From Candidatus Latescibacterota bacterium (GTDB lineage: Bacteria > Latescibacterota > UBA2968 > GCA-2709665), in contig OZ244937.1 of the NCBI GenBank assembly GCA_965222075.1, positions 1,568,001 through 1,632,000 of the forward strand: a stretch of DNA of 64,000 nucleotides, given 5' to 3'. Positions 1 to 61,107 of this stretch are shown one piece after another. The first letter of the stretch is position 1; every line of letters starts with the position of its first letter. The translations under genes and the position numbers were made by a program. The notes beneath the pieces are model-generated. The model was not told where the DNA came from, searched no databases, and saw only the letters and a program-made list of their open reading frames with translations.

Positions 1-3000
1 ATAGTATTCGGTACCCACCAGCACCTCATCCTTTCCGTCTCCATCCAGGTCCACGGCCAGACACCCTGTAATACAGTGGTAGTGGGTCTCCGTCTGCCAC
101 TTCAGCGTCCCGTCCGCCTCGAACACGTGGAACAGCCACCCCTCGGCCCCGGCCAGCACCTGCACCTTTCCGTCCCCATCCAGATCGGCCGACGACACCG
201 TCATCAGCCGCTGCGGGCGCATGCCGCTTCCCGGCGGAAACGCGTGCTCCCAGCGCGTCTCGCCCCCGGCATCCAGCACGTGCAGCCAGCAATCCCCGGT
301 GCCAACAATCGCCTCAGAAGCATCGTCTCCATCGATATCCGCCAGGTGTACGGCGCGGACTTCACCCTTTGCCCTGAAAGACCACACCTCACGCCCGTCC
401 GGCCCGAGCAGGTGCACACCCCCCTCTGACGTGCCCACGAGCGTCCGCCCCGCCCCATCCGATGCCACCGCCGTCACACCTGCCTGCGCAGCGTCCTGCT
501 CTGCCTGCCCGCGCGCAGCGCGCAGGCGGGCAGGCAGGCCCGCCCCGGCGTCGAACGTCCATTCCGGCTCCAGCCCCTCTCCGGGCGTCGGTTCCTGATC
601 TTTGGACACACGACCTTCACCGTACGGAGACGTCTTCTCCAATACCCGGTCAAAGACCCCTTCGGCCCCGGGTGAGACCTCCAGACCGTGCCGGCCGGCC
701 GGAAGCGTGAACCACAGCAGCTTTCCCTCGCCGCCACCTGAAATCCGTTCCCCGTTCAGACTGACCACCTCCGCACGGATGCCCACGCGGGTCTCGCTTC
801 GCGCCTCGATAACGCCCTCTCCCTTCGCCAGATCCATCTCGACCGAGACCGGCGCCCAGCTCCGGAACAGCGGCCCCTCCCACGACAGCACGGTGCCTTC
901 CACCAGGGCAAACCCGTTCCTGTCGATCCGGAACAGCTTCCCCTCCACCTCCAGCGCTCCCGACCTGAACGGCCCGACCCCGGCCATCACCCCCTGATCG
1001 GTCTGTTGATCTGCCTGTGCGTGTGAAACGCAGGCTTGCCTGCGCGCAGCGCGCAAGCAGGCAGACAGGTCCCGGACCAGCACCACAGACGGCCCGACCC
1101 GCTCCAGGGCAAAGGCCTGATCCATCCCCGCATTGGACGGGTACAGCAGGTTCACGTACGCCGTCCGATCACCGGCATCCAGCGCAACCCGCTTCTTCTG
1201 GTGCCACATTCGCACCACCCCGTCCGCATGCTCGTAATTCTCCCAATTGGACTTCCAGTCCGGCGCAAAATCCGCCTCCCGATCCGTCAACGTCTTCTCG
1301 GAGCCGTCCGCATTCACAATGTGGAACCGCTCCCCGTCCTGCTCAAGGTGCAGTTCATTCCCGTCCACCTCCACCTGTCCCAGCACCCGCCAGATGCAAT
1401 CCAGCAGGAAATCTCCTTTCTCCCGTCCTTCCACCGTATCAACCACCAGAAAATACCGCCCCTTGCGCCAGAAGATGCTTCGCGCCCAGTCCGTCCCGTT
1501 ATCCCCCGGCGACACCGTCTGGCTGTACCCCCACCCCTCGAAATCCGCGATCGCCCTCAGCGCCACCTGTGTCGGCTTGGTATAACACGTCCCGTCCTTC
1601 ACAATCACCACCGAATTGTGATACCTCGCCAGGCGGCGGATATAATCCAGGTCCGCCAACCAGATCCGGTCGTTCCAGCAGAGGCGGATCACCGAATTGC
1701 CGTCCTCCTGGGAATGCGAAAAACCGGTCGGCCCATCAATCAGCAAATATTCGCTGCCCCTATCGAAGCTACGCCGGAACGCCAGCTTGTCGAACGCCTC
1801 CGACAGCGGCACCTCCGCCTCCAGCACCGGGTCCCCGTGATACTGTTCCGTATTCCGTGCCCGTTCCCTGACCAGCTCGTATGCCGCCCGGTCCAGCATC
1901 GACGCCCGCACACCCAGCAGCTCCGTCGGCTCTACCGGCGCCACATCCTTAAAGAAAAACCCGTCATAGACCTCCCACCCTCCAATCCCCCAGTTCGTCG
2001 CCCGCTGGAACGAGTCCTTCCACTCCCCCCCCTTCTCCATCCACTCATAAAGCCACCGATAGCGCCCGTCGTTGTAGAACCACGCCCCGATGGCGGCTGA
2101 CTGCAACCCACTCGGACGGCTCGACCGGGATGCTCGATAGGCCCCCACGTCGCCGTATGAACAGTCGTCCCCCCGGCTATCGATCGTCAACACCGCACTG
2201 TCCAGCAGGCGCGCCAGATGACCGTTCTCCAAGTAAGAAAGATCTCCGGTCATCATCCCGTACTTGATCAGGTGCCCCGGCGTAATCCAGACGTATCCCG
2301 TACCCGCATTGTCATTCGGCTTGTAGGATCGGGCATGCAGTTCCAGCGTCCGGTGCGCTAACGGCAGCTTCTCGTCAAAATCCGTCAACCCGTAATACTT
2401 TTTGAAATACCTCGCCCCCGTGAACAGGCTCAACGCCGCAAAGCTCTGGTGGTTCTGGTTCTGCACCACGTCGTCCACGGTTTTGTACCGGAAATGGGGC
2501 AACTCCGACGTCCACCGGATAATATTGTAAATCGCGTTCGTCATCTTCAGCCGGTCCGCATCGCTCAGCACCTCCCCCTCCTCCATCACATCCCACGCCG
2601 TCAGCATCCGGTAAATCCAAAAATAGAGATGCGTTCCCTGAGACAGGCACCAGTCTCCCACCTCGTGCGCCAGGTCAATAAAAAACAGAAACTCCTCCCG
2701 CAACATCCACCCCCACACCTCCTGACCCGACAGATAGTAGAGCATCGCGTGGTCCACCATCCGCCGAAGCGGCCCCTGGCTCCCCGAAAGCGCCACCTGC
2801 TCGTTGACCGTATCGATGGTCTCCCGGGCCTCCGCCTCCGTGGGCGGCGACTCCGGGTTATGACGGGACACCGACCGGTTGATCCGGCCGATGCGCGTCC
2901 CCTCGGCCTCCAGAATCCCCAGGAAACCATCCACCGCCCGGTCTACACCCTCCGGTGTGCTCCCTCCCAGAAGGACCACGTTCCGCCCCTTCCCGAAGGG

Positions 3001-3375
3001 ATTGTGAACCGTGCGCACCTCATATCCCTCCCCCCCGGGATAATACTCGTCCGTCCACGCGTAAAAATTCATCCCCAGGTGCCGGACCACTGCGTTGTTG
3101 AACACATTCCCCGCCGCCACAATGTGCGCAGCCTCCCAATCGCTCTCGCCGATCTCCGATGCAGGGCGCACCTCTGCTCCACTGCCCAGAGCCTGTGCAA
3201 TCCCCTGGCCGATTTTCTCTCCGGCCTCACCCTCCGGCGGCACGATCAGCACCTCTTTCGACAGATCCGTCTCCAGGCAGAGATCCTTCAGCTTCGGAAT
3301 CTCCTTATTCCGGATCTCAATATCGTACGACTCCTGCCGCCGTCTCCGGGCGCTGCGGCCTTCTGCTCCAGCCAT
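1..3375 (-). CDS. Heparinase II/III-like + FG-GAP/PQQ beta-propeller protein, paralog 1 (3' end runs off window; absent from ORF track)
   Basis: Manual translation of several segments, all in one frame from ATG 3375: MAGAEG...LKDLCLET...GNVFNN...DEYYPGGEGYEVRTVHNPFGKGRNVVLLGGS...QNQNHQ...GFSHSQEDGNS...LAVDLDGDGKDEVLVG. Same motifs as 15091-18786 and 50036-53773. Confidence 0.85.
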   Translation of the reverse strand, partial: MAGAEGRSARRRRQESYDIEIRNKEIPKLKDLCLETDLSKEVLIVPPEGEAGEKIGQGIAQALGSGAEVRPASEIGESDWEAAHIVAAGNVFNNAVVRHLGMNFYAWTDEYYPGGEGYEVRTVHNPFGKGRNVVLLGGSTPEGVDRAVDGFLGILEAEGTRIGRINRSVSRHNPESPPTEAEARETIDTVNEQVALSGSQGPLRRMVDHAMLYYLSGQEVWGWMLREEFLFFIDLAHEVGDWCLSQGTHLYFWIYRMLTAWDVMEEGEVLSDADRLKMTNAIYNIIRWTSELPHFRYKTVDDVVQNQNHQSFAALSLFTGARYFKKYYGLTDFDEKLPLAHRTLELHARSYKPNDNAGTGYVWITPGHLIKYGMMTGDLSYLENGHLARLLDSAVLTIDSRGDDCSYGDVGAYRASRSSRPSGLQSAAIGAWFYNDGRYRWLYEWMEKGGEWKDSFQRATNWGIGGWEVYDGFFFKDVAPVEPTELLGVRASMLDRAAYELVRERARNTEQYHGDPVLEAEVPLSEAFDKLAFRRSFDRGSEYLLIDGPTGFSHSQEDGNSVIRLCWNDRIWLADLDYIRRLARYHNSVVIVKDGTCYTKPTQVALRAIADFEGWGYSQTVSPGDNGTDWARSIFWRKGRYFLVVDTVEGREKGDFLLDCIWRVLGQVEVDGNELHLEQDGERFHIVNADGSEKTLTDREADFAPDWKSNWENYEHADGVVRMWHQKKRVALDAGDRTAYVNLLYPSNAGMDQAFALERVGPSVVLVRDLSACLRAARRQACVSHAQADQQTDQGVMAGVGPFRSGALEVEGKLFRIDRNGFALVEGTVLSWEGPLFRSWAPVSVEMDLAKGEGVIEARSETRVGIRAEVVSLNGERISGGGEGKLLWFTLPAGRHGLEVSPGAEGVFDRVLEKTSPYGEGRVSKDQEPTPGEGLEPEWTFDAGAGLPARLRAARGQAEQDAAQAGVTAVASDGAGRTLVGTSEGGVHLLGPDGREVWSFRAKGEVRAVHLADIDGDDASEAIVGTGDCWLHVLDAGGETRWEHAFPPGSGMRPQRLMTVSSADLDGDGKVQVLAGAEGWLFHVFEADGTLKWQTETHYHCITGCLAVDLDGDGKDEVLVGTEYY
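479..538. mobile_element. Nested palindromic mini-insertion (33-nt outer + 27-nt inner at 504-530), in frame
   Basis: Outer cctgcctgcgcagcgtcctgctctgcaggcagg matches 31708-31740 at 31/33. Removal gives WTFDAGAGVTAV, matching paralog WTYDAGSGVRC. Confidence 0.8.
1010..1069. mobile_element. Nested palindromic mini-insertion (33-nt outer + 27-nt inner at 1035-1061), in frame
   Basis: Inner cttgcctgcgcgcagcgcgcaagcagg is the exact reverse complement of the outer unit at 29996-30049. Adds 20 codons; flanks read GA^TC. Confidence 0.8.
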
Positions 3376-3425
3376 TGTTCCCCCTCATGTCAAGGCATTA
3401 TGTGAACTGAAACAATTCGAATGGG

Positions 3426-5831: not shown

Positions 5832-5875
5832 CTCGTTGCTCCTTTCGAACGCCCTCGCATCTGCGATCGGCAGTC

Positions 5876-12946: not shown

Positions 12947-12956
12947 TGTCAATTAA

Positions 12957-14801: not shown

Positions 14802-14840
14802 TAAAAGTTTACCTTGAGAAGGTACAAATATAGCACACCT

Positions 14841-15058
14841 TCAATACCCCAGCCAGGGCTCGATCCACGGATGGATCCGGTGTCCGGCGCCGGGAAAGAA
14901 AACAACATCGATCACGAACGAAACAATCACCGCCGACGTGTGCCCTACAATCAATCCCAGGAAAAACGGCCTGGCTTTCCGATACAGCATCACGCCTCCA
15001 AGCCGCACAATCAGATACTTGCACAGCCAGGCAACAAAAATGGACAGCACGAAATTGA
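14841..15058 (-). pseudogene. 3' remnant of a DUF6785/DUF6784-like membrane protein
   Basis: SIFVAWLCKYLIVRLGG..LYRKARPFFLGLIVG...FFPGAGHRIHPWIE matches the C-terminus of 27748-29712. Confidence 0.8.
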
Positions 15059-15090
15059 CCAGAACAAATTATCGTGCTCTCCCTCCACAA

Positions 15091-18786: not shown

Positions 18787-18810
18787 ATTTCCTCCTGCCG
18801 AATGTCATGT

Positions 18811-29903: not shown

Positions 29904-32900
29904 TCACAGCTTCAACGCTTTGGTTTCGCTTCCGGAGTTGGGAATCGAAATCCGGTCGCCCGGTTTGAAATCCAGAATCTCGAACCGCCTGCCTGCCTGC
30001 TTGCGCCTGTCTGCGTGCGACGCACAGGCAGGCGCTGCGCGCAGGCAAGCCTGCAGCCCCTCCACCGATTCCAGCCGGATCTTCTTAAACGCCAGCAAAT
30101 CGACGATGCGGGACTGAAACGACCCGTCCTCCGTGCGCAGCACCTTCCCCTGGTATTCGCCCTTGTCTCCGCTGTTGTTGAAGCCCCATGCAAACGCAAG
30201 CGGCACGTCGCAGACCAGGACATCCGGGGCCTCAACCGCTTTGACCGTCCCCCTCACCAGCCGGGGATCGCCGTGCTGCAGGACGAGCCGGGCGTTCTGC
30301 CCACCCACGGCGGAGACAACCCGGTAGCCCGAACCGTGAGAATAGGGCGCGTCCGCTTCGGCCGCGTCCACCCGGCACAGCCGCCCGTCCAGGCGCATCC
30401 CGTCGGGCAGATCCCGGTCAATCGCCACGGATTCCGCATCGGCATCCACACCCGCGATCCGGGCCTCAAAACGCGCCTCCGGGAGCGTCGTTTCCGCATC
30501 GCCAAACCGCAAGCGCGTCCCTTCTACCAGGCACAGCTCCACCCGGCCGTTCGCCTCCCGAACGACCCCGAACCGCCCCTCAAGCGCAATCGGAACGCCC
30601 GCTTCGTCCCGGACCTGGACCGATCCGTCACGCGAGAAAAGGACCGTATCGCGTCGGCCGTCGGCCAGGTGTACCCGCACGGCCACGCTCCCGCTGTCCA
30701 CGTCGCGCGCAAGCACGCTTGCCCCCACCACGTTGCGCGCGCCGGAAAACGCCTCCAGCACGCTAACGAACAGGCTCTTCAGATCCTCCCCCTCCCGGCG
30801 GAGTATCACGCGATGAATCTGCTGCGCGCCTCTCAGGTCGGGTCCTTTTGCCGCGATCAGGGTCGCCGCCGGGTCGGCCGGAAACCACACGCCGAAACGG
30901 GTATCCCGCGCATCCCCAAACGTCCAGAGCGCGTATGCGTCCCGATCCAGGCAGGCGGTTTTCACATCGTGGATAAACGCGTACCCGTTCCCGGGCGGTG
31001 AGAGCCATCCGTAGGGCAGCGGACTTCCATCCGGCGCGGCCACGCCCTGGATGCGATCGTTCGGACCGATCCGTTCCCCCCAACTCTTCCCGGGCGCATT
31101 CGCCTCTTCCGAGCCGTCCACCGTCCCCAGCGCAGCCAGCGTCCACACCCCGGGACGGGCGGCAGGAGACACGCCCTCCAGGGAAAACGCCCCCGAATCC
31201 CCCTCCACGAATTTGGGTCCGTTCATCGCATAGTCGTGCATACGCCCGCCGGCCACCGGGAAAATATCCACCGTATAGGACGTCTCCTCGTCCACATCGC
31301 AAAAAATCAGCGCCCGGCGGTACTCGGTCGCCCCCTGGTGGCTCCTGGACAGCGGCGCGGAATACTCCGCGATCTTCACACCCCCCAGATCCTCGAAAGC
31401 AACCAGGTTCGCGCTGGGCACGAACTCGTAGCCCTGAGACGTCGGGATATCCTCGTTTACCGTCACCATCGCGTGGGAGATCGCCCGCATGCCCCACCCC
31501 CGATGCACGTGCGAACCGGCCAGCGCGTAGCCCACGTCTTCGATCACGGTCCGGCCCTTATCGTAGAGAAACAGCGCCAGCTGATCGTCCTGTGCCAGCA
31601 GGTTCGCGCCCCCCCGCACAATCAACGCCCGCGCCCGGTCTCCCGTCCCGCTTCGTAGCACCACCACCCCCTTGTGCCCGGCGAACGAAGAAGTGGATGG
31701 AAACCCGCCTGCCTGCGCAGCGTACTGCGCTGCAGGCAGGCCCCCGGCTTCCCCGGTCGGCCCCGGAACGGTATTGAACAGCGCCCAGGTGCCACGCCGG
31801 ACGTTCTCCGCCTTGCCATCCGACAGATCCAGCATCAGCTGCTCCGCCCGCTGCCGGGTCTTTGCGTCCCCACTTCGGAAATAGAGCCGTTCCAACAGAG
31901 ACCAGTGGCTGGACATCACCTCCCGTTCGGACGGCGGCCAGTAGCCCGGCCGCGCGTTCGTATTTCCGTAAGACGGAATGCGCCCGCACGCCCGGATCAA
32001 CTCGGTATACTCCAGGCACAGACGGACCAGACGGGGGTGGTCAAAGGCGTTTTGCATGCCCATCAACGCTTCCGCCTGAGGATAATCCCCGGCGGAAGCG
32101 TACTTGCCGGGATCGTAGTGGTAGAACAACTCCGCAACATCCTGCATCAGCGTGCCGGAGAAATACGCGTACATCTCCGAGTTCTCATAATATCCCCCAT
32201 CCCTGCCGATCACATTCTCCAGAAACGCCCGGAAAGCGCGGCCTGTCCAGGTGATGAACTCGGGTCTATCCGTCGCCAGCCCGATCGACAGCAGCGCCCG
32301 GTACCCGTCCAGCTCGTGGTTCTGAAAGTGTGTGAGATTCCCCTCCCACAGATTGTAACCCCCCCCTTCGGTCATCACGTAATCCTCTAACATGCCCTGG
32401 GCAATATTCTCCCGAATGCGAATGCGCCCGTTCCCCCGTGTCGGGGACACCTCGTCCATCCCGGAGAGGCCGGCCAGCAGGTCGTAGGCCTGCATGTCCA
32501 CAAAACGCTGCCGGTTGACGTGGCAGGTCTCGGCCTGCATCCGCCCCATCTCCCGCTCTTCGCCTTCCGGAATATCCAGCGGCCCGATCGTGGTGGGAGA
32601 CAATGTGGCCAGCGCGTCGTAGATCAGCAGCGCCTTCTCTCCAAACCGCGTCTCTCCGGTAATCGCATAGGCCAGGGCCAGGTTCAGCAGGGCATTGTCC
32701 GTCGGCCCGCCGGACCCGTAGGAGTAGGTCCCCAGCATACTCACGATAAAACTGTTCCACACCGGCACCGGCGCAAACCACTTTCCATCGTCATAAAAAC
32801 CGTGCCCCTCGTCCCGGAACGGAGACCCTTTCCGATCCTCCGGATATTCCCGCCCGCATGCCCCGCAGAACGCACGCCCGGGCTGAGACAGATCGCATTG

Positions 32901-35965: not shown

Positions 35966-36217
35966 CACGACTTGTTGCTGAAGGTGTGGAATGCGTACTT
36001 ATTCAAAAACCTCAAATTGACCGTTCCTGACGATCAGAACAGTCGCTTCGTATACCGCGTCCCCATCGTTGTTAAAAGAGAACTGGCCTAAAATCGTGTC
36101 CAGATTTCTGATACCCGCCATCGCATCTCGAATCGCGCTCGCCTCTGTCGACTAGATGATCCGAAGAATAAAAAATTAGACGGTCTCTGCCTTCGATTCT
36201 ATTTTCCTTATCGTTTA

Positions 36218-36242
36218 CCTGTCTGCCATCTGCACAGGCAGG
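36218..36242. mobile_element. 25-nt palindromic mini-insertion immediately before the transposase stop codon
   Basis: cctgtctgccatctgcacaggcagg; minus-strand flanks GGA^TAA. Confidence 0.85.
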
Positions 36243-36391
36243 TCCGAGGATTCGGTCCAGTTGCACCAAGCCTACAACGGCTCCTGCAATCATCGGGAAC
36301 AGCCCCGCTCCCAGGCGATAATCTTCGCGAAGGATGCGCCATCCTTTGATGCGACGGATGCTGTGTTCCACATAAATACGCTGTTGGGCTA

Positions 36392-36418
36392 CCTGTCTGC
36401 GTGCGACGCACAGGCAGG
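36392..36418. mobile_element. 27-nt palindromic mini-insertion in the transposase (in frame)
   Basis: cctgtctgcgtgcgacgcacaggcagg; removal restores ENRQIAQQRIYVEH. Confidence 0.85.
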
Positions 36419-36531
36419 TCTGCCTGTTCTCCAGACGTTGTTCTGAGGTGAGTTCACCCCCCTTTGGCTTTTTATGGGGTGAGATGATCTGGGGATGGGC
36501 TTGACTCTGATAGCCTTTATCTCCCAGTTTA

Positions 36532-36556
36532 CCTGTCTGCCATCTGCACAGGCAGG
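36532..36556. mobile_element. 25-nt palindromic mini-insertion that frameshifts the transposase
   Basis: Identical to 36218-36242; removal restores NADKLGDKGY. Confidence 0.88.
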
Positions 36557-37574
36557 TCGGCATTGGGAAATTGGGAGTCCACGCCACTTTCTTCGTAAAC
36601 TCGAATATCAGCTTTGGGTCCACGATGGCCTGCATCCACGCTGAGGATCTCTCCCTTTTTATCTGTGGCCACTTGGGTCTTGATCGTGTGGCGCTTGCGC
36701 TTACCCGAGTAGACCTGCCTTTGTCTGTGGTCCACAGAAGGCCTGCAAATGGGCGTTTCAAAGCTGTCAATTAGAACCCGATCCACCTCATCGGGATGCC
36801 AGGAAGGGTCGCTTTTCTTCCACTTCTTCTCCCCATCAAAGCGCTGAGTGGGGCAGACCGCTTGCAGAATCGGCACCACTTCGTGAAAGGTGTTTTCGGA
36901 GGTGTCCGCACTCACACCAAACAGTTGCCCCACCAACGCGTGGGATACGTTGTGACGCAAATAGAGCAAACTCATCAACACCTCTTGATAGGGCCTTAAC
37001 CGTCGCTTGCGTCCTCCCCCTACCCTACGCTTGCGATCAGGACGTGATGCTTGGGCTTGCTGGCGACGTTCTATCATCACCGGCAACACAGCCTCCAGCA
37101 GTTGGGACAAAGCCACTGGCGTAAGACCAAACAGAGCACGGATCTTTCCCGGATGGGTCGTATCAAGGGTGTGCAGATTCATCATCGCTGGCTCCTTGCG
37201 TAAATAGTCAAACAACCTACTCCTGAAGTAGCAGTGAGACAGTATTACGCAAATGGCTTGCCAAAGTCCAGCACTATTTCTCGGATCATCTACTGGGCAT
37301 TCAAGATCGCCCGCGCAAGAATAGGGAATATCGGTGGGAATCTCAAGCTTGCGAGCTTGAGTAAATTTCTGTCTTGCGGACAATGCGAAATTTGCAGATA
37401 TTTGTAGGCCTGGGTAGCCTTATACGGGAGTAGCTGAAACATCGCCCCTGCCCCGGTGCTACCCCCCAAAACAAACGCGAGAAGCATAACCAACATAAGC
37501 CATTAGGCCATCCTTTCGTTCCACAACAAATGGAATAACTGGTTCCAACACACACAACGAAATGAGACCCACTC

Positions 37575-38018: not shown

Positions 38019-39452
38019 CTACTCTTCCGGCCAACCATCGGGTATTTCGTTGGCGACGAGGGCAGCCTGAATGGCGATAGCGGCATCGCTGGTAACCCAG
38101 TCGCTCCAAAGATCGGCTTTGGAGCGCAGCCACCAGAGAGCTGCGTCATTTGTGCTGGCCTCCGGATTATCGTGCCGCCAAGCGGCAACTTCTTTGTAGA
38201 GGTCGAGGTCGAGGCCCCAGGCCCGCAGCATCTCGACGACGTCCGCGGCCCTATCCGGCAAACTGGAATGCACCGCAATCAGGATCGTTGGGTCTTCGTA
38301 GGCGCATGCCTTGTTTGTATCCCAGCACTCGTCGCTGAATGCGGGCTCCTCAAGCCGTACCAGGTCCAGGAGCAAGGCCGGGTCACTGGTGCCCCACTGG
38401 TAGCCGAGCCAGGGTTCGCGTTTCTCGTAGGCACTGTACAGGTCGGCGTCCAGAGCGGCGGCATCCTCCGGAGTGACGAGATGTACGTGGTCAGACAGGC
38501 CATAGCCTTCGACCTGGGCGACATTGATGGCCGCGCAGCCCCAGCCGCTAATGCAGGACATCAGGCGCGCTTTGCCTCCAGTCTCCTCGGTCACGAACAG
38601 GTTTTTGAAACGGTCTTCTTTGAGATCTTCTACGCTGTCCAGGTCGGGGTACTGCTCCTGGAGATACGCCGGAATGACAAACGCCGACTGCCAGGTGTTG
38701 CCCAGGCTTGGGCCCACGTTAATCACTTCGCCGGCGGCTTGAGATTCTGCCCAGCCTTCTTCCTGGTTGGGCAGCCAGACCTCCATGAAAACATGGGTCT
38801 CGCCTCTGCGCAGGCTATCAAACAGAGGCAGCGTGGAGCCGGAGATCAAATCGGTAGGATAGCCGTAGCCCTTCTCCACGATATACTGAGCGATGCGGTT
38901 TTGTATCTGGGCACTGGTCCAATCCAGGTCGCTGAAAACGATGGTCTCTTCAGGCTCTTCCGGCTCCGGTGGCAGAACGGATGAACCCAAAACGCGTGCC
39001 TTCCCGCCAACGGGCAAATCAACCATCAACTCATACCCACCGTTAATCGGAATACTCGACCACGAACCCAGCATGCTCCCATCCTGCATGGCGCGCGCCT
39101 GATAATAACCACTCACATCATCCCCCTCAATCTCCACCCTCGCCTCACCACTCTCATCGGTTGTGCCCGACCACGCATAATCTGCTGCCCGTCCTGAAAC
39201 AGAACGCGAGAACTCTACGGTCGCACCACTCACAGGCACCCCATCCTGATGCACCCTGGCCACCACCACAGCCTGCGTCACATCCCTGCTGACAGCCGGT
39301 TTACTCAGCGGCTGTCCAACCTGTTCGCCTGTCTGCCCGACAGGCAGACCTGCATCCGTTATCGGTGATGTTGTCACACGTTCACCGCTGCAACTCCACA
39401 TCACCGCACCGGCAAGCACCAGTACGATCACACTGCAAATACGTCTCAACAT
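38019..39452 (-). CDS. Glycine betaine/proline (OpuAC/ProX-like) ABC substrate-binding lipoprotein with an extra N-terminal beta domain
   Basis: Lipobox-like VMWSC; DLDWTSA, MEVWLPN, SCISGWGC, YQWG motifs. Confidence 0.8.
   Translation of the reverse strand: MLRRICSVIVLVLAGAVMWSCSGERVTTSPITDAGLPVGQTGEQVGQPLSKPAVSRDVTQAVVVARVHQDGVPVSGATVEFSRSVSGRAADYAWSGTTDESGEARVEIEGDDVSGYYQARAMQDGSMLGSWSSIPINGGYELMVDLPVGGKARVLGSSVLPPEPEEPEETIVFSDLDWTSAQIQNRIAQYIVEKGYGYPTDLISGSTLPLFDSLRRGETHVFMEVWLPNQEEGWAESQAAGEVINVGPSLGNTWQSAFVIPAYLQEQYPDLDSVEDLKEDRFKNLFVTEETGGKARLMSCISGWGCAAINVAQVEGYGLSDHVHLVTPEDAAALDADLYSAYEKREPWLGYQWGTSDPALLLDLVRLEEPAFSDECWDTNKACAYEDPTILIAVHSSLPDRAADVVEMLRAWGLDLDLYKEVAAWRHDNPEASTNDAALWWLRSKADLWSDWVTSDAAIAIQAALVANEIPDGWPEE
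39328..39348. mobile_element. 21-nt palindromic mini-insertion, in frame (LPVGQTG)
   Basis: cctgtctgcccgacaggcaga in the linker after the lipoprotein signal; last base deviates from consensus. Confidence 0.6.
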
Positions 39453-39539
39453 AGCGCCCCCCTTTGGTTTTGCCTTCTTCACTACGAACTGCCGACCTTC
39501 GAGTCTGCCGAGTACCTGAGAAATTCGCTTCCCCATTGT

Positions 39540-39568
39540 AACATAAGGGATTTCTCCGTTTACGTCAA
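39540..39568 (-). promoter_or_regulatory. Possible sigma70 promoter of the SBP gene
   Basis: TTGACG-N17-TATGTT on the minus strand. Confidence 0.4.
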
Positions 39569-39605
39569 GTGACACATTCACTTTTTCCACCCGGGCCGTA
39601 CACGA

Positions 39606-46300: not shown

Positions 46301-46307
46301 CGCACGA

Positions 46308-49985: not shown

Positions 49986-50035
49986 CTTCACACCTCTTCG
50001 TGAGCGGATTTGTTCGACTGTCCCTCCCAAAAACC

Positions 50036-53000
50036 TCACACGCCCAACACCGAAAGCGTCCCATCCGCCCCCCCCAGCATCAGATGCCCCCGGCCGTCGG
50101 CAGCCAGGGCGTGAACCGCGCCCTGTGCCCGGTGGCTGGCGACCAGCGCGCCCTCCCCGTCCAGAACCCACACGGTCCCACCCTCACACCCCGCGGCGAT
50201 CTTCGCATCCCCGTTCAAGTCACCGACCACCACCTGTTCCACGGGCGCCCTCAGGTTGCGCCGCCACCGCTCCGTACCGTTCTCATCCAGCAAATAGAGA
50301 TAGAAACAGTCCGACCCGACCACAACCTCCGGCCTGCTATCCCCATCCACGTCCACCACACAGACCGCGTTTACCTCCTCTCCCACCCGCTGCTTCCAGA
50401 GCGTCTCCAATCGATCGCCTTCCACCTTCAGCGCAAAGATATTCGACCGATTCGTGCCGCATACAATCAGGTGATCCGCCTCCTGTACCCACACGTCGCA
50501 CGCAGGCATCATCGACGCCCACCCATCCAGCCCGTTGCTTGCAGCCTGGCTGCCGTCGGCGTCCAGCACATAACAGGTCCCCCCGCAGGTGATCCGGCCC
50601 GGACCGCCGATCACCTCCTGCTTCCCATCCCCGTTGATATCCGCCACACGAAGCGGCGCAAAAATCCCGTAAATCATAAAAGACCACCGCTCGTTTCCAC
50701 CCTCGTCAAAACAGTGGAGCTTCCGGTCCGAGACCGCCGCTAAAATATCCATCCGGCCGTCTCCACGCAGGTCCGCCGCCGTTACGAACTCCACCGCGGA
50801 ATTCCGGGCGTATCGGTCCCACGTCCCTCTGTAAATCTCAAAAGCGCGTGACCACCGCACCGCGCCGCCTTCCTCCAGCAGATAGAGGCGCCGGTCGTCC
50901 GCGCCCACAATCACCGAGGGCCGGCCGTCCAGGTCCACCGCGCACACCGAAAGCACGCTCCCTTCCGCCTGGAAGGACCAGGCCGGCTTTCCGTTTTCGT
51001 CCAGAGCCACCACCCGTCCGTCCTCCGTACCCAGGACCACCCCATCCTCTCCGGCGGCAGCGCAGCGCACGCCCGAACCGGCATCGTAAGTCCAAACCCT
51101 GCGCAGCCTGGGAACAGACGCCGCCGACGCACGCTTCCGGGGGCCCGCCTCCCACGCCGGCAGGCCTGCAACCCCGTCCAGCGACAACACGCCCGCCCCG
51201 GCCTCCCGCGTCCGAACCTCCTGCCTTCCGGCCGCAACGCGCAACCGCTCCCCGCACAGCGTGATCTCACCAGGTTGCGATGCCACCACCACGCCCTCAC
51301 CCATCTCCGGATCAAACGCAATCGAAACAGGCTGCTCGCTTTCAAAAATCGCGCCTGCTGCGGACAGCGACGTCCCATTACACAGCGCAAACCACCCATC
51401 GCCGACCGCATAGACCTCGGCGCGGCCGGAAAGAGGTCCAACCTCAAACGCCGTGTTACCACCCCCGGTCCCCACCACCATCCGGCCTTCCGACCCCTCG
51501 ACCACCACGGCCGAATCACCCACTCGACGCATCCGGTCGTCCACGGGCTTCCGCTCGCTCGACGCATAGAACAGGTTGATAAACGTGTGCCGGTCTCCAA
51601 CCGCCATCTCCCGGTTCGCCGACTCGTGCAGAATATTCACATAATCATCCGCATAGGGATATGCGTCCCACCAGTGGCCGAAATTCTCCCAGTCCCGCTC
51701 CAGCGACAGCCGGCCTCCGCCCACACTCTGTAAAACAAACCGATCTTCCCGCCCGCTCTCCGGGTCTTGCTGCACGGCCTCCAGCGTCCCGTCCCTCAAG
51801 GTGGGAGTCCCCAATATGCGCCAGTGACACTGGAGGGCGAACGCGCCCGCCTTTGTCGCTTCCACCTCATCCACCACCACAAAACATCGCCCCTTACACC
51901 ACACCACATTCCGAACCCACAACGCACCCCAATCCCCTGCCACGGACGTCCGGCTTATGCCCACACGACCCAGATCCGCCACACCCTCCAACCGGCACAG
52001 CGCAGGTACTCTCCACGCCTCCCCATCCCGCACCGCCGTCACCCCATTGTGGTGCTTCAGCGTCGGCCCCTCCGTATACGACGCATCCACCAGGAAAATC
52101 CGGTCGTTCGCCGAAAACTCCGGGATCGTATTCCCGTCCTCGTGGCTGTGGTTGCCGTAGAAAATCCCGTGCAGCATCAGGTACTGGTCCTCCCGGTCGA
52201 ACCCCTCCCGGAAACAGACCGTATCGAACGCCTCTTCCCTTTGCAGGTTCAGCGGCTTCACCTCGCTCTTTCGCGCCTTCGGGTCTTCTGCGAAATCGTA
52301 GAACCCGCCAGCGACCTCCAGCGCCTGCACGCCGGTCATCTCCCTGGGCGTCTCGGGCGCCAGTCCGTCGTAGAAATACTTCTCAAAACTCCTCACCAAC
52401 AACGGATCGCTCACGGTCTCGTACCGCTCTCCCGACGGCTGGGGCCGAAAATAGTCCGAGGGTCTGTCGAACCGTTTGCGAAGCAGGAACTCCGCGCGCC
52501 CGTCCTGCAGCACATGCCCCGCCTTGACCAGGAAATGCGTCGGGTATCCATCCGTCGGAACGCCCGTATCTCCAAACGCCGGCAGTTCGCCCCGGTTGTT
52601 GCAGTAAAACACCGCCTGGTCCAAAGACCGTTTGCAGTTCCCGTTGTCGATATACGTCGTATCTCCGCTCGCCAGCGTGTAGGTCAACATGTGGTCCAGC
52701 GTCATCCACTGGTAAGCGTTGGCATCCTCGATCGGCTTGAACGACACCGCCTGCCCTTTGAACACATCCGCAGACGCAGCCATCCACTCCTTCCCTTCCT
52801 CAAAACCGTAGTGCGTTGAAAAATACCGCCCCCCGAACCACGCCGCCAGCGCCACCAGCGTCTGGTGGTTCTGCCGGATCATCCGGTGCCCCACACCCTG
52901 ACGGAAAAAACCGGTATACGCCCCCTCCTCGGAATCCATAATCCACAGCAGGTATTCCGTGATCTTCAGCCGATCCTCGTCCGAGAACACCGGGCTCTCC

Positions 53001-53773
53001 TCGATCAGGTCCCAGACCACCGCCAGCCACCAGACGTGAAAGTGCGCCATCACCCCGTACTCACCCATCCTCAGATGCGCCTCCGCGATTTCCCGAACGG
53101 CCGCTGCATACGCCTCGTGTCCGGTCCGGTGATACATCAACCCGTACGCGCCCGCCTCCGAAATCAGCTGATAGCCTGCGCCCGATTCGGAAGCGTGCGG
53201 CTCGGTCGCCCGCGCAATAAAGTCCTCCCGCCGCTCCTGCAACCATCCCTCCGGCGGGCAGCCGAAAGCGTCGAACTCGGAACCGGGCCGGATCTCCATC
53301 AACCACCCGAAGCTGAGCGTCTTTCTATCGGGCACAAGCGCCACAAAACGCGACACCACCCGCTCCAGCCCGGCTTCGTCGCTGGCCCCAAGCAGAACCA
53401 CGTTCTTCCCGTTCCCCAAAGGATTGTGCAACGTCCGCAGCGCGTACCCGCCCCTGCCGGGATAACAGCGGTCTTCCACCGCCCACCACTGGTAATACAG
53501 CCACCGCACAAAGGCGTTGTCAGCCATGTTCCCCAGCGCCACCACGTGCCCCTCCAGCAGCGTTCCGGCCGCCGTCTCCCCGGCCCGGACCACCTCCAGC
53601 CGCACCCCCGTCGCCGCCTCGACCCGCTCGACGATCCACCCTGCCAGCCGCTCGTGCGCCCCATCCCCGCCGATGACGATCTTGCCTTGAGGCTCACCGT
53701 TGACCACCAGTGCCGTCTCCAAACACATGTCTTTCAACACATCCACGTTCAGACCCACCGATCCGTTCACCAC
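50036..53773 (-). CDS. Heparinase II/III-like + FG-GAP/PQQ beta-propeller protein, paralog 5 (close to paralog 2)
   Basis: GTG after GAGGAGG; long stretches identical to 15091-18786, e.g. EEAFDTVCFREGFDREDQYLMLHGI. Confidence 0.85.
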   Translation of the reverse strand: MVNGSVGLNVDVLKDMCLETALVVNGEPQGKIVIGGDGAHERLAGWIVERVEAATGVRLEVVRAGETAAGTLLEGHVVALGNMADNAFVRWLYYQWWAVEDRCYPGRGGYALRTLHNPLGNGKNVVLLGASDEAGLERVVSRFVALVPDRKTLSFGWLMEIRPGSEFDAFGCPPEGWLQERREDFIARATEPHASESGAGYQLISEAGAYGLMYHRTGHEAYAAAVREIAEAHLRMGEYGVMAHFHVWWLAVVWDLIEESPVFSDEDRLKITEYLLWIMDSEEGAYTGFFRQGVGHRMIRQNHQTLVALAAWFGGRYFSTHYGFEEGKEWMAASADVFKGQAVSFKPIEDANAYQWMTLDHMLTYTLASGDTTYIDNGNCKRSLDQAVFYCNNRGELPAFGDTGVPTDGYPTHFLVKAGHVLQDGRAEFLLRKRFDRPSDYFRPQPSGERYETVSDPLLVRSFEKYFYDGLAPETPREMTGVQALEVAGGFYDFAEDPKARKSEVKPLNLQREEAFDTVCFREGFDREDQYLMLHGIFYGNHSHEDGNTIPEFSANDRIFLVDASYTEGPTLKHHNGVTAVRDGEAWRVPALCRLEGVADLGRVGISRTSVAGDWGALWVRNVVWCKGRCFVVVDEVEATKAGAFALQCHWRILGTPTLRDGTLEAVQQDPESGREDRFVLQSVGGGRLSLERDWENFGHWWDAYPYADDYVNILHESANREMAVGDRHTFINLFYASSERKPVDDRMRRVGDSAVVVEGSEGRMVVGTGGGNTAFEVGPLSGRAEVYAVGDGWFALCNGTSLSAAGAIFESEQPVSIAFDPEMGEGVVVASQPGEITLCGERLRVAAGRQEVRTREAGAGVLSLDGVAGLPAWEAGPRKRASAASVPRLRRVWTYDAGSGVRCAAAGEDGVVLGTEDGRVVALDENGKPAWSFQAEGSVLSVCAVDLDGRPSVIVGADDRRLYLLEEGGAVRWSRAFEIYRGTWDRYARNSAVEFVTAADLRGDGRMDILAAVSDRKLHCFDEGGNERWSFMIYGIFAPLRVADINGDGKQEVIGGPGRITCGGTCYVLDADGSQAASNGLDGWASMMPACDVWVQEADHLIVCGTNRSNIFALKVEGDRLETLWKQRVGEEVNAVCVVDVDGDSRPEVVVGSDCFYLYLLDENGTERWRRNLRAPVEQVVVGDLNGDAKIAAGCEGGTVWVLDGEGALVASHRAQGAVHALAADGRGHLMLGGADGTLSVLGV

Positions 53774-53798
53774 GGCCACCTCCTCTTTAAGACAGCCT

Positions 53799-55172
53799 CT
53801 AAAGATCGCTCCGCCAATACGGATTATACACCTCTCCGGGATACGTCGAATGCACCAGCTCGTAGATCCCCCCTCCCCAGCGGTCCCGAAAGATAAACGT
53901 ATACTCTCCCTTCTTCTGGTAGAGCCAGACTTCATACGGTTTCTGACCGGCGGCAGACGTATGGTAATCGATATCGTCCGGCGGTCCATATTTGATATAG
54001 ACCCGTCCCTTATCCGTATCGGACCCCTGCTGGCGACGCCTCGCTACGAAACGGTTCTCCGCATGGCTCATCCGGAGCATGTGTTCCAGGAGGCGCTCGT
54101 TGGTCGGCGTGCCCGGTGTAGGATCGATGTTTTTCCAGAAGTGCCTCAAAAACTTCACCTTCGACGGCCAGTCCTGCAGGTCTTTGTAGGCCTTGAACAC
54201 CTTCTCCTCGGCAATATACCTGATATCCGTGTAGTATCGCAGCAGGTCTCTTTGAACCTGTGAGAACGGCTCTGTCTGTTCCCGGAAAGCCAGGAACAGG
54301 GACCGCCGCGTACGGACGTACTCCCGGCTGCCGCCGTCGAAGGCCTCAATCTGGAAGTGGTAACGCCCCTCCGGCAGTCCTTCGGTCTCTAAGATATCCG
54401 TCTTGACGCAGCTCTCGCCGGGTTTCAGAACACGCTTGGCAATAAACGTCTTCGCCTTCCGGCCGGTTGAATCCACCAGGCTGTACCCCAGGATAAAGCT
54501 GTCTTCGGAACGTTCGGGTTCTACGGTGAAATTGTAGAGTTCAAAATAGATCGACAGCGGTTTCCCGGAAAGAAAGTGTCGGGTGATATTGGGCGTCACC
54601 TTCCAACCCTGCTTGACAAACCGGTCCACCTCTCCACTGCGCGCCACCCTCGAGGCAAACTGGATATCGCTGAATATCAGTCCCTTTTTTTCAAAATCGC
54701 GCGCCTCTATCACCGTCTCGCACGTTCCTGTTTTGCCGCTGCCGGTATCCTTGATCGTAACGGTCGTCCGATAGCTGCCCGGCAGCAGATCGAATCCGAC
54801 CACATCCCTGTACGGGGCGCTGACCCGCGTCAGAATATCCAGACTGTCGACCGAAACGCGGCGGGTCAGCGTCCAATCTTCAACGGGCGATCCACCCATA
54901 TCGGTCAGATTGACCGTCAGTTCCATCTTCCCCACAGGCGCTTTGTCCCTGGAAGCAAACCAGAGCTGCTGCGCGTCGGTCAGAATGTAGATCTCATACC
55001 GGGTGCGCCCTTCGGGTCCGCGGAACCCGGCGGAATCGATGAAAAATTGCAGCTCACCCTTGCTCGCGATGGGCATGTCGTCGGCCTCCTGGCCAAACCC
55101 CGGCTGCGCCCACACAGACCCCCAGGCAGCCGCCAGGATGATCCAGAAGAGAGACCTTGAGGACGTTATCAT
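53799..55172 (-). CDS. GWxTD domain-containing secreted protein (motif reads GSDTD)
   Basis: Signal peptide; FWKNIDPTPGTPTNE, TDKGRVYIKYGPPD, PYEVWLY. Confidence 0.85.
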   Translation of the reverse strand: MITSSRSLFWIILAAAWGSVWAQPGFGQEADDMPIASKGELQFFIDSAGFRGPEGRTRYEIYILTDAQQLWFASRDKAPVGKMELTVNLTDMGGSPVEDWTLTRRVSVDSLDILTRVSAPYRDVVGFDLLPGSYRTTVTIKDTGSGKTGTCETVIEARDFEKKGLIFSDIQFASRVARSGEVDRFVKQGWKVTPNITRHFLSGKPLSIYFELYNFTVEPERSEDSFILGYSLVDSTGRKAKTFIAKRVLKPGESCVKTDILETEGLPEGRYHFQIEAFDGGSREYVRTRRSLFLAFREQTEPFSQVQRDLLRYYTDIRYIAEEKVFKAYKDLQDWPSKVKFLRHFWKNIDPTPGTPTNERLLEHMLRMSHAENRFVARRRQQGSDTDKGRVYIKYGPPDDIDYHTSAAGQKPYEVWLYQKKGEYTFIFRDRWGGGIYELVHSTYPGEVYNPYWRSDL

Positions 55173-55244
55173 ATCTCACCACCTCCTGTCGCTATAGCTG
55201 GCGTCGGCATTGCCCCGGAAGTACACGAGTTGCTCGTCTTCAAA

Positions 55245-56882: not shown

Positions 56883-57360
56883 TCACTCGCCGTAGCGAAA
56901 ACGGATCTCGCCGGTCGCGGTCTGGCCGCTGACCTGGTCCTCAACCGTGACCTTCAGGAGTTGCACCCCGCGTTTGGCCGTGCTCAGATCGAGCTCGAAA
57001 TATTCCTGATAGTAGGCGTAGACCTTCTGCTGCTCCGTATAGGTCCGGCTGGGCATCGGCACAATCCAGGCATCGCCCTTTTTGAACCTGTCGCCGTACC
57101 CCATATCCTGTATGGACGAAGCAAGCTCAATATCGCTGAGCTGGAGCGCATCGGGTCCGAAGTCCCTGACCTCCAGGGCCTGCTTGTAAAGCCCGGTGTG
57201 CCCCGACAGCTCGTCGTTGAGCTGGATCTGGAGTTCATACTTGCCCGGAGGCAGCTCTTGATCAGCTCGGGCAGAAATGCGCCCTTGACCCTGTTGAAGT
57301 TATCAATATCCTGGTAGATAAACTCCTTGTTGTCCCGGTAGATCGTCGTGTGGTCTTCAT
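56883..57360 (-). pseudogene. Internally deleted GWxTD-family-like gene (start plus C-terminal domain only)
   Basis: RBS and ATG MKTT, then out of frame PGKYELQIQLND...LQLSDIELASSI...PMPSRTY, similar to 53799-55172. Confidence 0.65.
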
Positions 57361-57382
57361 CGAGACCTCCTCACGTTTGAAA

Positions 57383-57416
57383 CCTGCCTGCGCCGCTGCC
57401 GTTCCCGGCAGGCAGG
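57383..57416. mobile_element. 34-nt palindromic mini-insertion, intergenic
   Basis: cctgcctgcgccgctgccgttcccggcaggcagg; flanks AA^TC. Confidence 0.7.
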
Positions 57417-57451
57417 TCGGGTGTCTGCATCGGGCGAACACGGATACGCCC

Positions 57452-59212
57452 CTACTCCTGAGCCTTAAACGGCACGCTGTCCACGATCCCCTCCCCTTCC
57501 CGCACGGTCACCGTCTGGCCGGCCGCAACGCCTTTGAACCGCTCGACGCGGCCGCCGGGCCAGACCACCTCCACCTCGTCCGCCGCCGCCCGTTCGCCCA
57601 GCCCGAAGGTCGCCACCAGCTCGTTTTGCGAGCAGTAGCTCGACCCCGCCTTCAGAAACCGCGTCTGCAGGATCGAACCCGCCCGCAGCTTCACCTCCGT
57701 TCCGATCCCGCTCCGGTTGCTCTGCGTGCCCACAACCCGCACCCGGAGCGCGCGGTTGCGGTTTCCCCCCTCGTTGCGAAACAGCGCCGGACGACCGTTG
57801 TTGGTGGATACGAGAACATCCAGGTCTCCGTCTCCGTCATAGTCCGCATAGGCCGCGCCCCGCCCCACCAGGGGACGCCTCAGATCGCCGGCGGACTGCC
57901 CCACCTCTACGAAGCGGCCGTCTCCACGGTTGTGGAACAGCAGGGGACGCTGCGCATAGGTCATATGGGGCTTGACCCGCTGGATCTCGCTCTCCACGTG
58001 CCCGGTTGCCGCAAAAAGATCCAGGCGGCCGTCCAGGTCGTAGTCGAAAAAACAGACCCCGAACGTCACAAAAGGGGAACTCGGCCGCCCGACCCCGGAC
58101 GGCACGGTCCGGTCCGTAAAGGCGCCCTCTGCCTCGTTCCGAAACAGCGAGATCATCTCATAGGCGAAATTTCCAACCGCCAGGTCGGGCCGCCCGGTAT
58201 TGCGCGCATCCGCTGCATCCACGCCCATCCCGGACTTGGCCGTACCATCGGCGCCAAACGCCACCCCGGCCAGGATGCCCTCCTCCGTAAACGTCCCGTC
58301 TCCCTGGTTCCGGTACAGAAAGTCCGGCATGGTATCGTTGGACATCAGAATATCCGGCCACCCGTCCCTGTCGTAATCCAGGGCCACCGCCGACATCCCC
58401 TTGCCCGGCTTCCCATAAACCCCGGCCGCCTCCGAGACATCCGTAAACCGCGCGCCGTCGTTTCGGTAGAGGCGGGGATATTCGGCCTCATACAGCTGCG
58501 GCGCGTAGGGCCGGTGCCCCGTCTCCGCATCCAGCCAGGCGTCCCGCTCCGCCGTCCACTTCAGGTAATTGCCAACAAACAGGTCCAGGTCCCCGTCCCG
58601 GTCGTAATCCAGCCAGACCGCGCACACGCTCCAGGCGGCGTCTCCCACGCCCATCTCCCCGGTCACATCTGCAAACGTCCCATCCCCGCCGTTCCGGAAG
58701 AGGTGGTTGGGCCCCAGGCAGGCCAGGTAAACATCCTCATCGCCGTCGTTGTCAAAATCCCCCACAGCGCACCCCATCCCGTACATCTCCACCTGCAGCC
58801 CGGCCTGCCGGGTCACATCCGCAAACGTCCCGTCCCCACCGTTTCGGTAGAGGGCCATCGTGACCCGGCGGCCGGCCTTCTGCTCGGGCCACGCCATATT
58901 GTTGACCAGGAGGATATCCGGGTCTCCATCGCCATCGTAATCCAAAAAGCCGCAGCCCGATCCCATTGTCTCGGGCATGTATCCCCTGCCGAATCCCCCG
59001 TTGCTGTGCCGAAATTCGATCCCGGCCTGCCGGGTCACATCCGTAAACCTTACCCGGTCGCCGGATATTCGATCTTCCTGAGCGATGCCCTCCCCCAGAG
59101 CAACCAGGGCAGCGACGATCGTACACCCATAAATATACCAAATTCTGTTTTGAAGGGGAACGCAACTTTTCAATTTGCAATGGATCATTTGCAATTCCCC
59201 AACCTTCCACAC
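57452..59212 (-). CDS. CRTAC1 / ASPIC-UnbV family protein (FG-GAP repeats)
   Basis: FTDVT..AG, DYDGDGD, LFRN.GDGTF repeats; C-terminal SNRSGIG...SYCSQ...FGLG. Start uncertain. Confidence 0.9.
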   Translation of the reverse strand: MWKVGELQMIHCKLKSCVPLQNRIWYIYGCTIVAALVALGEGIAQEDRISGDRVRFTDVTRQAGIEFRHSNGGFGRGYMPETMGSGCGFLDYDGDGDPDILLVNNMAWPEQKAGRRVTMALYRNGGDGTFADVTRQAGLQVEMYGMGCAVGDFDNDGDEDVYLACLGPNHLFRNGGDGTFADVTGEMGVGDAAWSVCAVWLDYDRDGDLDLFVGNYLKWTAERDAWLDAETGHRPYAPQLYEAEYPRLYRNDGARFTDVSEAAGVYGKPGKGMSAVALDYDRDGWPDILMSNDTMPDFLYRNQGDGTFTEEGILAGVAFGADGTAKSGMGVDAADARNTGRPDLAVGNFAYEMISLFRNEAEGAFTDRTVPSGVGRPSSPFVTFGVCFFDYDLDGRLDLFAATGHVESEIQRVKPHMTYAQRPLLFHNRGDGRFVEVGQSAGDLRRPLVGRGAAYADYDGDGDLDVLVSTNNGRPALFRNEGGNRNRALRVRVVGTQSNRSGIGTEVKLRAGSILQTRFLKAGSSYCSQNELVATFGLGERAAADEVEVVWPGGRVERFKGVAAGQTVTVREGEGIVDSVPFKAQE

Positions 59213-59214
59213 CC

Positions 59215-60390: not shown

Positions 60391-60401
60391 GCTGTATTTT
60401 T

Positions 60402-60947
60402 TTATCGCGCATTCCTGGCGCAGCGGATCCCCCAACCGTCCGTGGCGCCCCTGGGGTCCGTCCAGTTGCGGTAGGTGATGCTCAGCCTGTTCGGGGTCTG
60501 GTGCGCCGCAGTGCGCCAGGAGCCCCCGCGTATCACCCGAAACTTACCTTCCTCAGGGCCGGTGGGGTTGACGGTGCCGCCCACCTTGTAGTAGCCCTCA
60601 TCGTAATAGTCCGCGCACCACTCCCACACGTTGCCCACCAGGTCCATCGCCCCGTAAAAGCTCACCCCTTCAGGGTAGTTTCCCACCGGCGCCAGGGTAT
60701 TGTCATATCCGTCATTTCCGTCCCGGTAATTGGCCCGCGCACCGTTGATCCCCTTGTTCCAGGGATACGGCTCCCACGCCTCGTCGCCCCGGGCGGCCTT
60801 CTCCCATTCCGCCTCCGTGGGCAGCCGGGTCCCCCGCCACTTGCAGTAAGCCTCCGCGTCGGACCAGTTCACCCCCACAACCGGAAAATTCGGCTTCGTC
60901 TGCGCCCGCTGTGGCCAGTCCCCGATGCCGTCTTTAGACCCGCGCAT
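60402..60947 (-). CDS. Formylglycine-generating enzyme (SUMF1-like) domain protein, 5' part apparently missing
   Basis: [39 protein letters not shown]. The usual N-terminal F.MG/EVT motifs are absent. Confidence 0.8.
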
Positions 60948-61074
60948 CTTACTCCGGCTGCGGTGGCTGGTCGGCGTATGCCGTTTCTGGCCTCCGCCGA
61001 GGATTCATTTGCCATTCTGGGCATTTGCTTGACATAATCGGGCTGTATTCCCAGGCAGAAAGGGTCGTTGAAGA

Positions 61075-61107
61075 CCTGTCTGCAGTGCGGGGCACCGCAC
61101 AGGCAGG
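61075..61107. mobile_element. 33-nt palindromic mini-insertion, intergenic
   Basis: cctgtctgcagtgcggggcaccgcacaggcagg; flanks GA^TC. Confidence 0.78.

Follow-up and report, generated by a model that had tools for sequence, protein, structure and literature searches.

The 64,000-nt stretch G000:C1:1568001-1632000 (the window) is part of G000, a single-contig genome of 5.36 Mb with 59.3% G+C, and raises the question of how very short hairpin sequences of one family came to lie inside genes, inside a broken insertion sequence (IS) and between genes. An original prediction described 13 palindromic units at 10 loci, beginning at positions 479, 1010, 29996, 31708, 36218, 36392, 36532, 39328, 57383 and 61075, and all of them are present. 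These units are true insertions: exact blocks that sit between a purine and a pyrimidine, with no duplication or loss of target bases. They probably represent a non-autonomous family of mobile DNA hairpins, similar to repetitive extragenic palindromic (REP) sequences, that is moved in trans.

The family is far more frequent than chance would allow, as had been anticipated. The pattern CCTGYCTGC-N3-20-CAGGCAGG occurs 9 times in the window, whereas 100 dinucleotide-preserving shuffles yielded 0 matches, and across the G000 genome it has 164 forward and 165 reverse matches. A broader pattern, CCTGYCTG-N0-40-CAGRCAGG, returned 239 non-overlapping genome sites comprising 139 distinct sequences; this total is a lower bound, given that the units at 479, 1010 and 39328 each have one degenerate end base and escape the strict regular expression. 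Site lengths peak at 33 nt (n = 80), 27 nt (n = 43), 25 nt (n = 16), 30 nt (n = 13) and 36 nt (n = 13). Single units measure 19-36 nt, with ends (CCTG)(YCTG) and (CAGR)(CAGG) flanking a variable inner stem-loop, the arms of which co-vary between variants so that pairing is kept by compensating changes. There are two main forms: a symmetric form, CCTGCCTG...CAGGCAGG (131 genome sites), and an asymmetric T-form, CCTGTCTG...CAGGCAGG (104 genome sites). In addition, the ends have a third variant, CCTGCTTG...CAGGCAAG, which occurs mostly nested within the other forms. Units are inserted in each other and in other repeats, which produces composites of 54-60 nt. Identical copies also recur as predicted, with 36218 matching 36532, 30006 matching 36392, and the outer unit at 29996 recurring in reverse-complement form at 1035. 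The 33-mers fold well as single-stranded DNA (-14.4 kcal/mol, z -3.2 to -3.8), and an Rfam scan of the window gave no match.

The evidence for insertion comes from comparing filled with empty sites. In the minus-strand gene at 29904-33152, the units at 31708 and 29996 encode segments of 11 and 18 residues, respectively, and both segments are absent from all 14 sister-genus orthologs (80-84% amino acid identity). Both 20-residue segments of the minus-strand gene at 1-3375 (units 479 and 1010) are likewise absent from 16 of 16 orthologs, one of which is from the same genus. Many paralogs exist of the N-terminal module that contains the 21-nt unit at 39328. This unit is missing from one G000 paralog and from three loci in relatives (L217, L220 and L221) and is present in the G000 paralog at 921758, and a G003 paralog (L218) holds a different unit in this position, one of the 27-nt type. 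The in-gene insertion sizes first proposed (21, 33, 54, 60 and 60 nt) agree with these ortholog and paralog comparisons, which also show that the units add peptides to proteins at all five in-gene loci of the window.

Base-exact evidence is provided by the broken IS at 36072-37383, which has at least 10 related copies in the genome G004 (76% identity). When one of these copies was aligned base by base, it was empty at three sites, reading TTTA^TCCG (36218), GCGA^TCTG (36392) and TTTA^TCGG (36532). Thus, the units in the G000 copy are exact blocks of 25, 27 and 25 nt, with no target base duplicated or lost. Two repeat families within G000 also have both empty and filled members. A longer repeat with 39 copies is empty in 25 and filled in 14 at one point, GAGCGG^CGCC, where 11 copies hold the same 33-mer and three hold nested composites; a 14-copy repeat, CCCCGGACGATTGGCTAACG-CCTGTCTCCGGCTCACCGGATCGTCTCC (e.g., at 2554036 and 4359882, outside the window), carries differing units at one point and also has empty copies. 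The 39-copy repeat (e.g., at 432918, 962000 and 4022383, also outside the window) is about 150 nt or more in length and ends ...GCGGCGTCTGAGCGG^CGCCCTTCTTTTTCGGCCTTTTTCTTGGGCGAACAAGAAAAAGGCC; it is either a hot spot or a carrier for the small units, and could itself be a MITE, an RNA gene or an IS end.

The third line of evidence is a difference between near-identical strains. Contigs of runs X6 and X7 join 31706 to 31740 and lack exactly the intervening 33 nt; their flanks, compared over 240 and 161 bases, respectively, show 0 other differences. One short X2 contig also omits these 33 nt, and X3 contigs run into the unit. The comparison used public assembly contigs, not raw reads, from runs possibly related to the source of the genome, and it reports presence or absence, not frequency; the strain contigs break at the repeat of the 29996 composite, and the strain difference was seen at 31708. 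The difference at 31708 indicates recent movement. Two expectations of the original prediction, insertion without target duplication and presence/absence polymorphism, are borne out by the G004 empty sites, the two repeat families and this 33-nt difference.

The flanks of the units reveal a target preference. Copies with similar flanks were removed first, which left 81 T-forms and 93 symmetric units. Of the dereplicated T-forms, 52 have A and 22 have G at position -1, and 49 have T and 27 have C at position +1, so that the purine^pyrimidine junction noticed in the window is found genome-wide. Position +4 is G in 63 of the 81. A YNNG tetranucleotide follows the 3' end of the T-form (in the CCTGTCTG...CAGGCAGG orientation) in 58/81, compared with 14% of genome positions, and is most often TCGG (18), TCTG (8) or TGGG (6). 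The mirror signature on the opposite side is much weaker (21/81), and the preference is degenerate and not strict. Among symmetric units, the signature occurs on at least one side in 66/93, where about 24 would be expected, and in their CCTGCCTGCAG... subfamily it is one-sided (18/28 vs 6/28). The tetranucleotide belongs to the target and not to the element, because the empty IS sites already hold it; its presence on one side indicates that insertion is oriented and that sequence is read on that side.

The position of the units relative to genes bears on how they are tolerated in coding DNA. Gene calls from our own crude caller (4027 genes, 85% coding) place 128 of the 239 sites between genes, 79 within called genes and 32 in open-frame 5' extensions. 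The density is approximately 163 per Mb in intergenic DNA, by arithmetic from these counts, and 17-24 per Mb in genes, so units are 7-9 times rarer in genes. In total, 215 of the 239 sites are free of stop codons in all six frames, compared with 39% of composition-matched shuffles, and the same is true of 118/128 intergenic sites; lengths of 27 and 33 nt dominate outside genes too. The 79 in-gene sites are read as xLPA...AQAG in 44 cases, as PAC...AGR in 20 and in the third frame in 15. With these lengths and no stops in six frames, an in-gene copy adds 7-20 residues, often xLPA...AQAG, without breaking the gene. The original prediction credited selection with the restriction of in-gene units to multiples of three, and a slight sharpening is indeed seen (65/79 in-gene vs 84/128 intergenic sites, Fisher p = 0.011), the 14 in-gene exceptions being IS fragments, parts of nested composites and open frames that are weak or short. 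However, the in-frame habit is mainly intrinsic to the family, because intergenic sites are already mostly multiples of three and stop-free. Selection removes most in-gene copies and sharpens the multiple-of-three pattern only slightly; it does not create it.

Spread beyond G000 was followed in 41 genomes of the same order, representing two families. Matches were found in 29 of the 41, with counts from 0 to about 168 per strand that vary widely inside one genus, and a reversed-pattern control gave 0 matches in all 41. Identical units are shared between different genera. Among the matches listed from wider genome contigs there are scattered singles, mostly of 20 nt and from many phyla, which are uninformative on distribution. 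Virus-labelled contigs hold 107 copies in 103 contigs, which rough arithmetic places near chance level. Only two sequences from viral contigs (L276-L355 and further loci) are shared with G000, and one of these, a 33-mer, is present in five contigs; this is merely a lead for spread by phage.

These properties are best accounted for by REP-like mobility. The prediction that the element is non-autonomous fits, given that the units are too short to code and no long multi-copy parent element bounded by the family ends was found in G000; the movement in trans is a part that we infer. In the proposed mechanism, a trans-acting enzyme would work on the folded single-stranded hairpin, and the unit would enter as one block between a purine and a pyrimidine, beside a one-sided YNNG that is mostly TCGG. 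The enzyme would most likely be an HUH/Y1-type transposase, since precise insertion beside a one-sided tetranucleotide without duplication marks that chemistry; the HUH type specifically is nonetheless a tentative choice and, taken on its own, distinctly doubtful.

The closest known systems are the REP and REPIN sequences associated with REP-associated tyrosine transposases (RAYT) in E. coli, Pseudomonas, Stenotrophomonas and others, which are high-copy-number imperfect palindromes 20-40 nt long (PMC3733652, PMC3116915). In G000, the 239 sites are likewise imperfectly palindromic and dispersed, 195 of them being 36 nt or shorter, and 128 of the 239 fall in the approximately 15% of the genome that lies between genes. 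REPs are also mostly intergenic with some in genes, vary widely in copy number among relatives and are presumed to move in trans as single-stranded hairpins; REPs within genes had already been reported (PMC3733652). The units described here differ in their ends (CCTG...CAGG), in their flanks (R at -1, and YNNG) and in having no GTAG/CGTC tag, which is the criterion given in PMC3733652. Furthermore, no RAYT gene here is flanked by units of this family, unlike the REPtron or REPIN-RAYT arrangement, and the units are mostly single (30/238 neighbour gaps are below 150 nt, without preferred spacing) instead of forming inverted doublets of fixed spacing, with at least one third in open frames. CGTC-tagged REPs, which PMC3733652 says 'apparently lack a dedicated transposase', are alike in being a palindromic family without a cognate transposase gene that is nested in other palindromes; they have another end motif, and the exact empty sites and strain-level difference are documented here for the present family.

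Other systems share single features. IS200/IS605 elements and their miniature derivatives insert without target duplication beside a one-sided tetra- or pentanucleotide and have imperfect hairpins that distinguish the strands, but they possess two separate end hairpins with offset cleavage, whereas an element of the present family consists of a single hairpin with the cuts at its foot. IS608-type elements in particular have cleavage sites offset from the hairpins and a strong bias in orientation with respect to replication. In cyanobacteria, the small dispersed repeats (SDR) of Elhai et al. 2008 are reportedly 21-27 nt long, hairpin-forming, nested in one another and in longer repeats, and too small to be coding, with an unknown mobiliser; they are alike in size and nesting and differ in motif and, at the phylum level, in host. 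Rickettsia palindromic elements, which are restricted to Rickettsia and lie in frame in protein genes, are similar as in-frame palindromes that add peptides, but at approximately 100-150 nt they are much longer than the 19-36-nt units. Rickettsia palindromic elements are mentioned in PMC3733652. A miniature inverted-repeat transposable element of a DDE transposon was considered and rejected, as there is no target duplication and no parent element with the same ends. A literature search on the motif, on palindromic or in-frame insertion and on small mobile repeats, with subscription papers and supplements outside its scope, returned no description of this family, and the only papers on the same motif concerned (CCTG)2 'minidumbbell' DNA.

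Several results weigh against an HUH enzyme acting on these hairpins, or against in-trans mobility as the source of all copies. Empty-site alignment places the cuts exactly at the stem foot on both sides. The 25-27-nt T-forms fold weakly (z -0.7 to -1.5) and are often a 4-nt tail plus a hairpin. GC skew puts the origin at about 4.21 Mb and the terminus at about 1.34 Mb, and T-form orientation shows no clear bias relative to replication (64:40 raw; 48:33 dereplicated, p = 0.12; 23:21 intergenic), in contrast to IS200/IS605. Raw YNNG counts were taken in five other genomes, and the excess was not seen in G009 (6/81) or G019 (12/104), although copies there ride within larger repeats, which prevents a direct comparison of these counts. 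Copy number in G000 is also partly due to hitch-hiking, with 11 of the 19 copies of the commonest 33-mer lying in one longer repeat.

A further objection is that the cognate mobiliser was not found in G000 or in the relatives searched. G000 has two PF01797 matches, one an intact IS200-like tnpA (in the region of genome 2071937-2072296) and the other a decayed copy. The end hairpins of the intact TnpA element, CCCCNNCC-TTT-GGNNGGGG, differ from those of this family, and the decayed copy simply has a unit nearby. A RAYT-like open frame at genome 3242104-3242868 (254 aa, low G+C for this genome) was overlooked by PF01797 and found by tblastn with proteins of the relatives; thus, family searches here can miss distant Y1 genes. 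On its two sides lie direct copies of a separate repeat of about 95 nt with GTAG-type hairpins (3241545-3242980), which is absent elsewhere in the genome, and no CCTG unit lies within 1 kb of the open frame. In relatives, a unit occurs within about 200 nt at 2 of 7 RAYT-like loci, yet the genes there lie between other repeats. The original prediction had suggested looking for an HUH or other nuclease gene that is flanked by the motif and co-occurs with it, and for the Y1 genes neither expectation held: neither Y1 gene of G000 carries this hairpin, and across the 41 genomes PF01797 matches do not track unit copy number (G019 has approximately 80 units and 0 matches, G004 has 0-2 units and 32 matches, and G038 has 1 unit and 75 matches). 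In addition, G000 contains no OrfB_IS605 (OrfB/TnpB) and no IS110, and of IS91 it retains only one decayed piece. The G000 genes that lie between two units included nothing telling as a mobiliser. Dense unit clusters were tried as a mobiliser locus and rejected, since they are decayed IS copies and duplicated segments.

The same observations are the main support for a different route, in which the units are mobile but a blunt-footed hairpin is placed between R and Y by an unrecognised nuclease/ligase or recombinase, or by a host replication or repair step that ligates a free hairpin oligonucleotide into a nick. No Y1 gene carries these hairpins, Y1 matches do not follow copy number, replication-strand bias is missing and the cut falls at the exact stem foot on both sides, unlike the offset cleavage of IS608. 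However, no candidate gene or intermediate has been seen, the genes between units are uninformative, and the one-sided tetranucleotide preference implies an oriented, sequence-reading enzyme, as known HUH enzymes would be. This route is considered unlikely on balance. A bolder proposal combines it with the coding behaviour of the family: the hairpin of 19-36 nt would be the whole transposon, an enzyme that is neither a RAYT nor an IS200-type TnpA, or a host process, would cut at the stem foot and paste it blunt at R^Y, and the family would have been shaped to be readable in every frame, so persisting in genes and continually supplying short peptide insertions to proteins that are secreted or exposed at the surface. 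The chance that this is correct is small, although large enough for the proposal to be kept in view.

A less probable explanation is that most copies were carried passively by larger repeats or duplicated segments, with few true insertions. Such carriage does occur: the 11 identical 33-mers occupy the same point of the 39-copy repeat, the IS with three units is present twice, and a segmental duplication joins 498-502 kb with 2827-2830 kb. In G019 and G009, the commonest units sit in a larger repeat and much of their number reflects hitch-hiking; of 41 flanks fetched from these two genomes, 36 have a G^C junction, and most of the 41 belong to a few shared flank contexts. As the sole cause, however, carriage is largely refuted by the 174 sites of G000 with unrelated flanks (81 T-forms and 93 symmetric units). 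Identical units also occur in unrelated genes, differing units occur at the same site of one repeat, and strains differ at 31708. We consider this explanation improbable.

Least probable of all, and very much so, is that the units are functional signals maintained by selection (inverted uptake sequences, protein-binding sites, or RNA stem-loop terminators or stabilisers): intergenic enrichment, compensating changes in the inner stems and the view in PMC3733652 that published REPs act as RNA elements would favour it, but the uptake-sequence and terminator readings were rejected because the 9-mer end (226 and 239 occurrences, against about 45 expected per strand by arithmetic) is near chance once whole units are subtracted, no T-run lies 3' of the units and orthologs lack them, with one third to nearly half of the units in open frames and copy number ranging so widely among close relatives. 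A function acquired after insertion is possible.

REP-like mobility in trans is thus the preferred explanation, and the family has a wider value. The way in which single REP-like hairpins move is a debate of several decades, and few data speak directly to individual units. The present family offers clean material, with base-exact empty and filled sites, a strain-variable unit, nesting, a readable target rule and relatives that range from 0 to about 168 matches per strand, features which make the search for a mobiliser tractable by comparison and biochemistry. It is also an example of selfish DNA built to be harmless in coding sequence, and is relevant both to the origin of loops and linkers in proteins and to the annotation of genes in such genomes.

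Within the window, the five in-gene loci are distributed over three genes. The gene at 1-3375 (minus strand) encodes an FG-GAP protein and carries two in-frame composites of 60 nt, each adding 20 aa. The first, at 479..538, is a 27-nt unit nested in a 33-nt unit; its 20 aa lie in the GLPARLRAARGQAEQDAAQAG region, and the coding-strand sequence of its empty site is GG^TGTG. The second, at 1010..1069, also combines a 33-nt with a nested 27-nt unit, and its first plus-strand base is degenerate. A 54-nt composite at 29996..30049, near the 3' end of the gene 29904-33152, consists of an outer 27-nt CCTGCTTG...CAGGCAAG unit holding a 27-nt T-form at 30006-30032 and adds 18 aa in frame. The same gene contains the 33-nt symmetric unit at 31708..31740, which adds 11 aa (LPAAQYAAQAG) in frame and is predicted to form a DNA hairpin of -14.4 kcal/mol (z -3.2). 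The 21-nt T-form at 39328..39348 (plus strand, last base degenerate) lies in frame past the signal-peptide region of an OpuAC-domain gene at 38019-39590 (minus strand), adding 7 aa (GLPVGQT).

Three plus-strand T-forms, at 36218..36242 (25 nt), 36392..36418 (27 nt) and 36532..36556 (25 nt), interrupt the broken IS, the DDE_Tnp_4/HTH_Tnp_4 transposase gene of which (36072..37383, minus strand, by Pfam) is split into two overlapping open frames. A second copy of this IS at genome 4161425-4162568 is 99.9% identical without gaps; both copies consequently hold the same three units, and the IS was copied after its interruption, by duplication or by transposition in trans. The two remaining units are intergenic. 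The 34-nt symmetric unit at 57383..57416 lies directly downstream of an FG-GAP/ASPIC gene (57452-59212, minus strand) with the flanks A^TCGG, and the 33-nt T-form at 61075..61107 (plus strand) has the flanks A^TCTG and an identical copy inside an open frame at genome 1015824.

At genome 4022520-4023960, beyond the window, six units lie within 1.4 kb in a decayed IS that retains the remnant of an IS4-like transposase. This IS itself sits inside a member of the 39-copy repeat family, and small units seem to accumulate in dead mobile DNA. The RAYT-like genes have features of their own. A piece related to the 95-nt GTAG-type repeat is also found inside the RAYT-like gene of G000. The repeats around the RAYT-like genes of relatives read RGQDALDP in translation, and some of these genes lie in frame inside a large methylase-like gene. 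At L061 (G002:C2:162000-172500) and L067 (G003:C1:3068000-3074500), a methylase-like protein of 1200-1441 aa includes one or two complete in-frame RAYT-like domains bounded by repeat-encoded RASRPH and GQDALDP segments. The transposase gene and its repeats appear to be read through as part of the host protein, the N-terminus of which presumably resembles DUF1156 proteins.

The window also contains part of a cluster of paralogous genes encoding proteins of 1100-1300 aa (1-3375, 15091-22488 and 46308-53989, together with genome 1520682-1530059). Their mutual identity is 32-37%, the single member tested has C-terminal FG-GAP repeats, and each relative has 8-10 such genes. Finally, window positions 12001-16000 have approximately 51% G+C, compared with about 60% around them, and include a 614-aa open frame (12957-14801, minus strand) that the codon-usage caller rejected; this segment may be foreign DNA.

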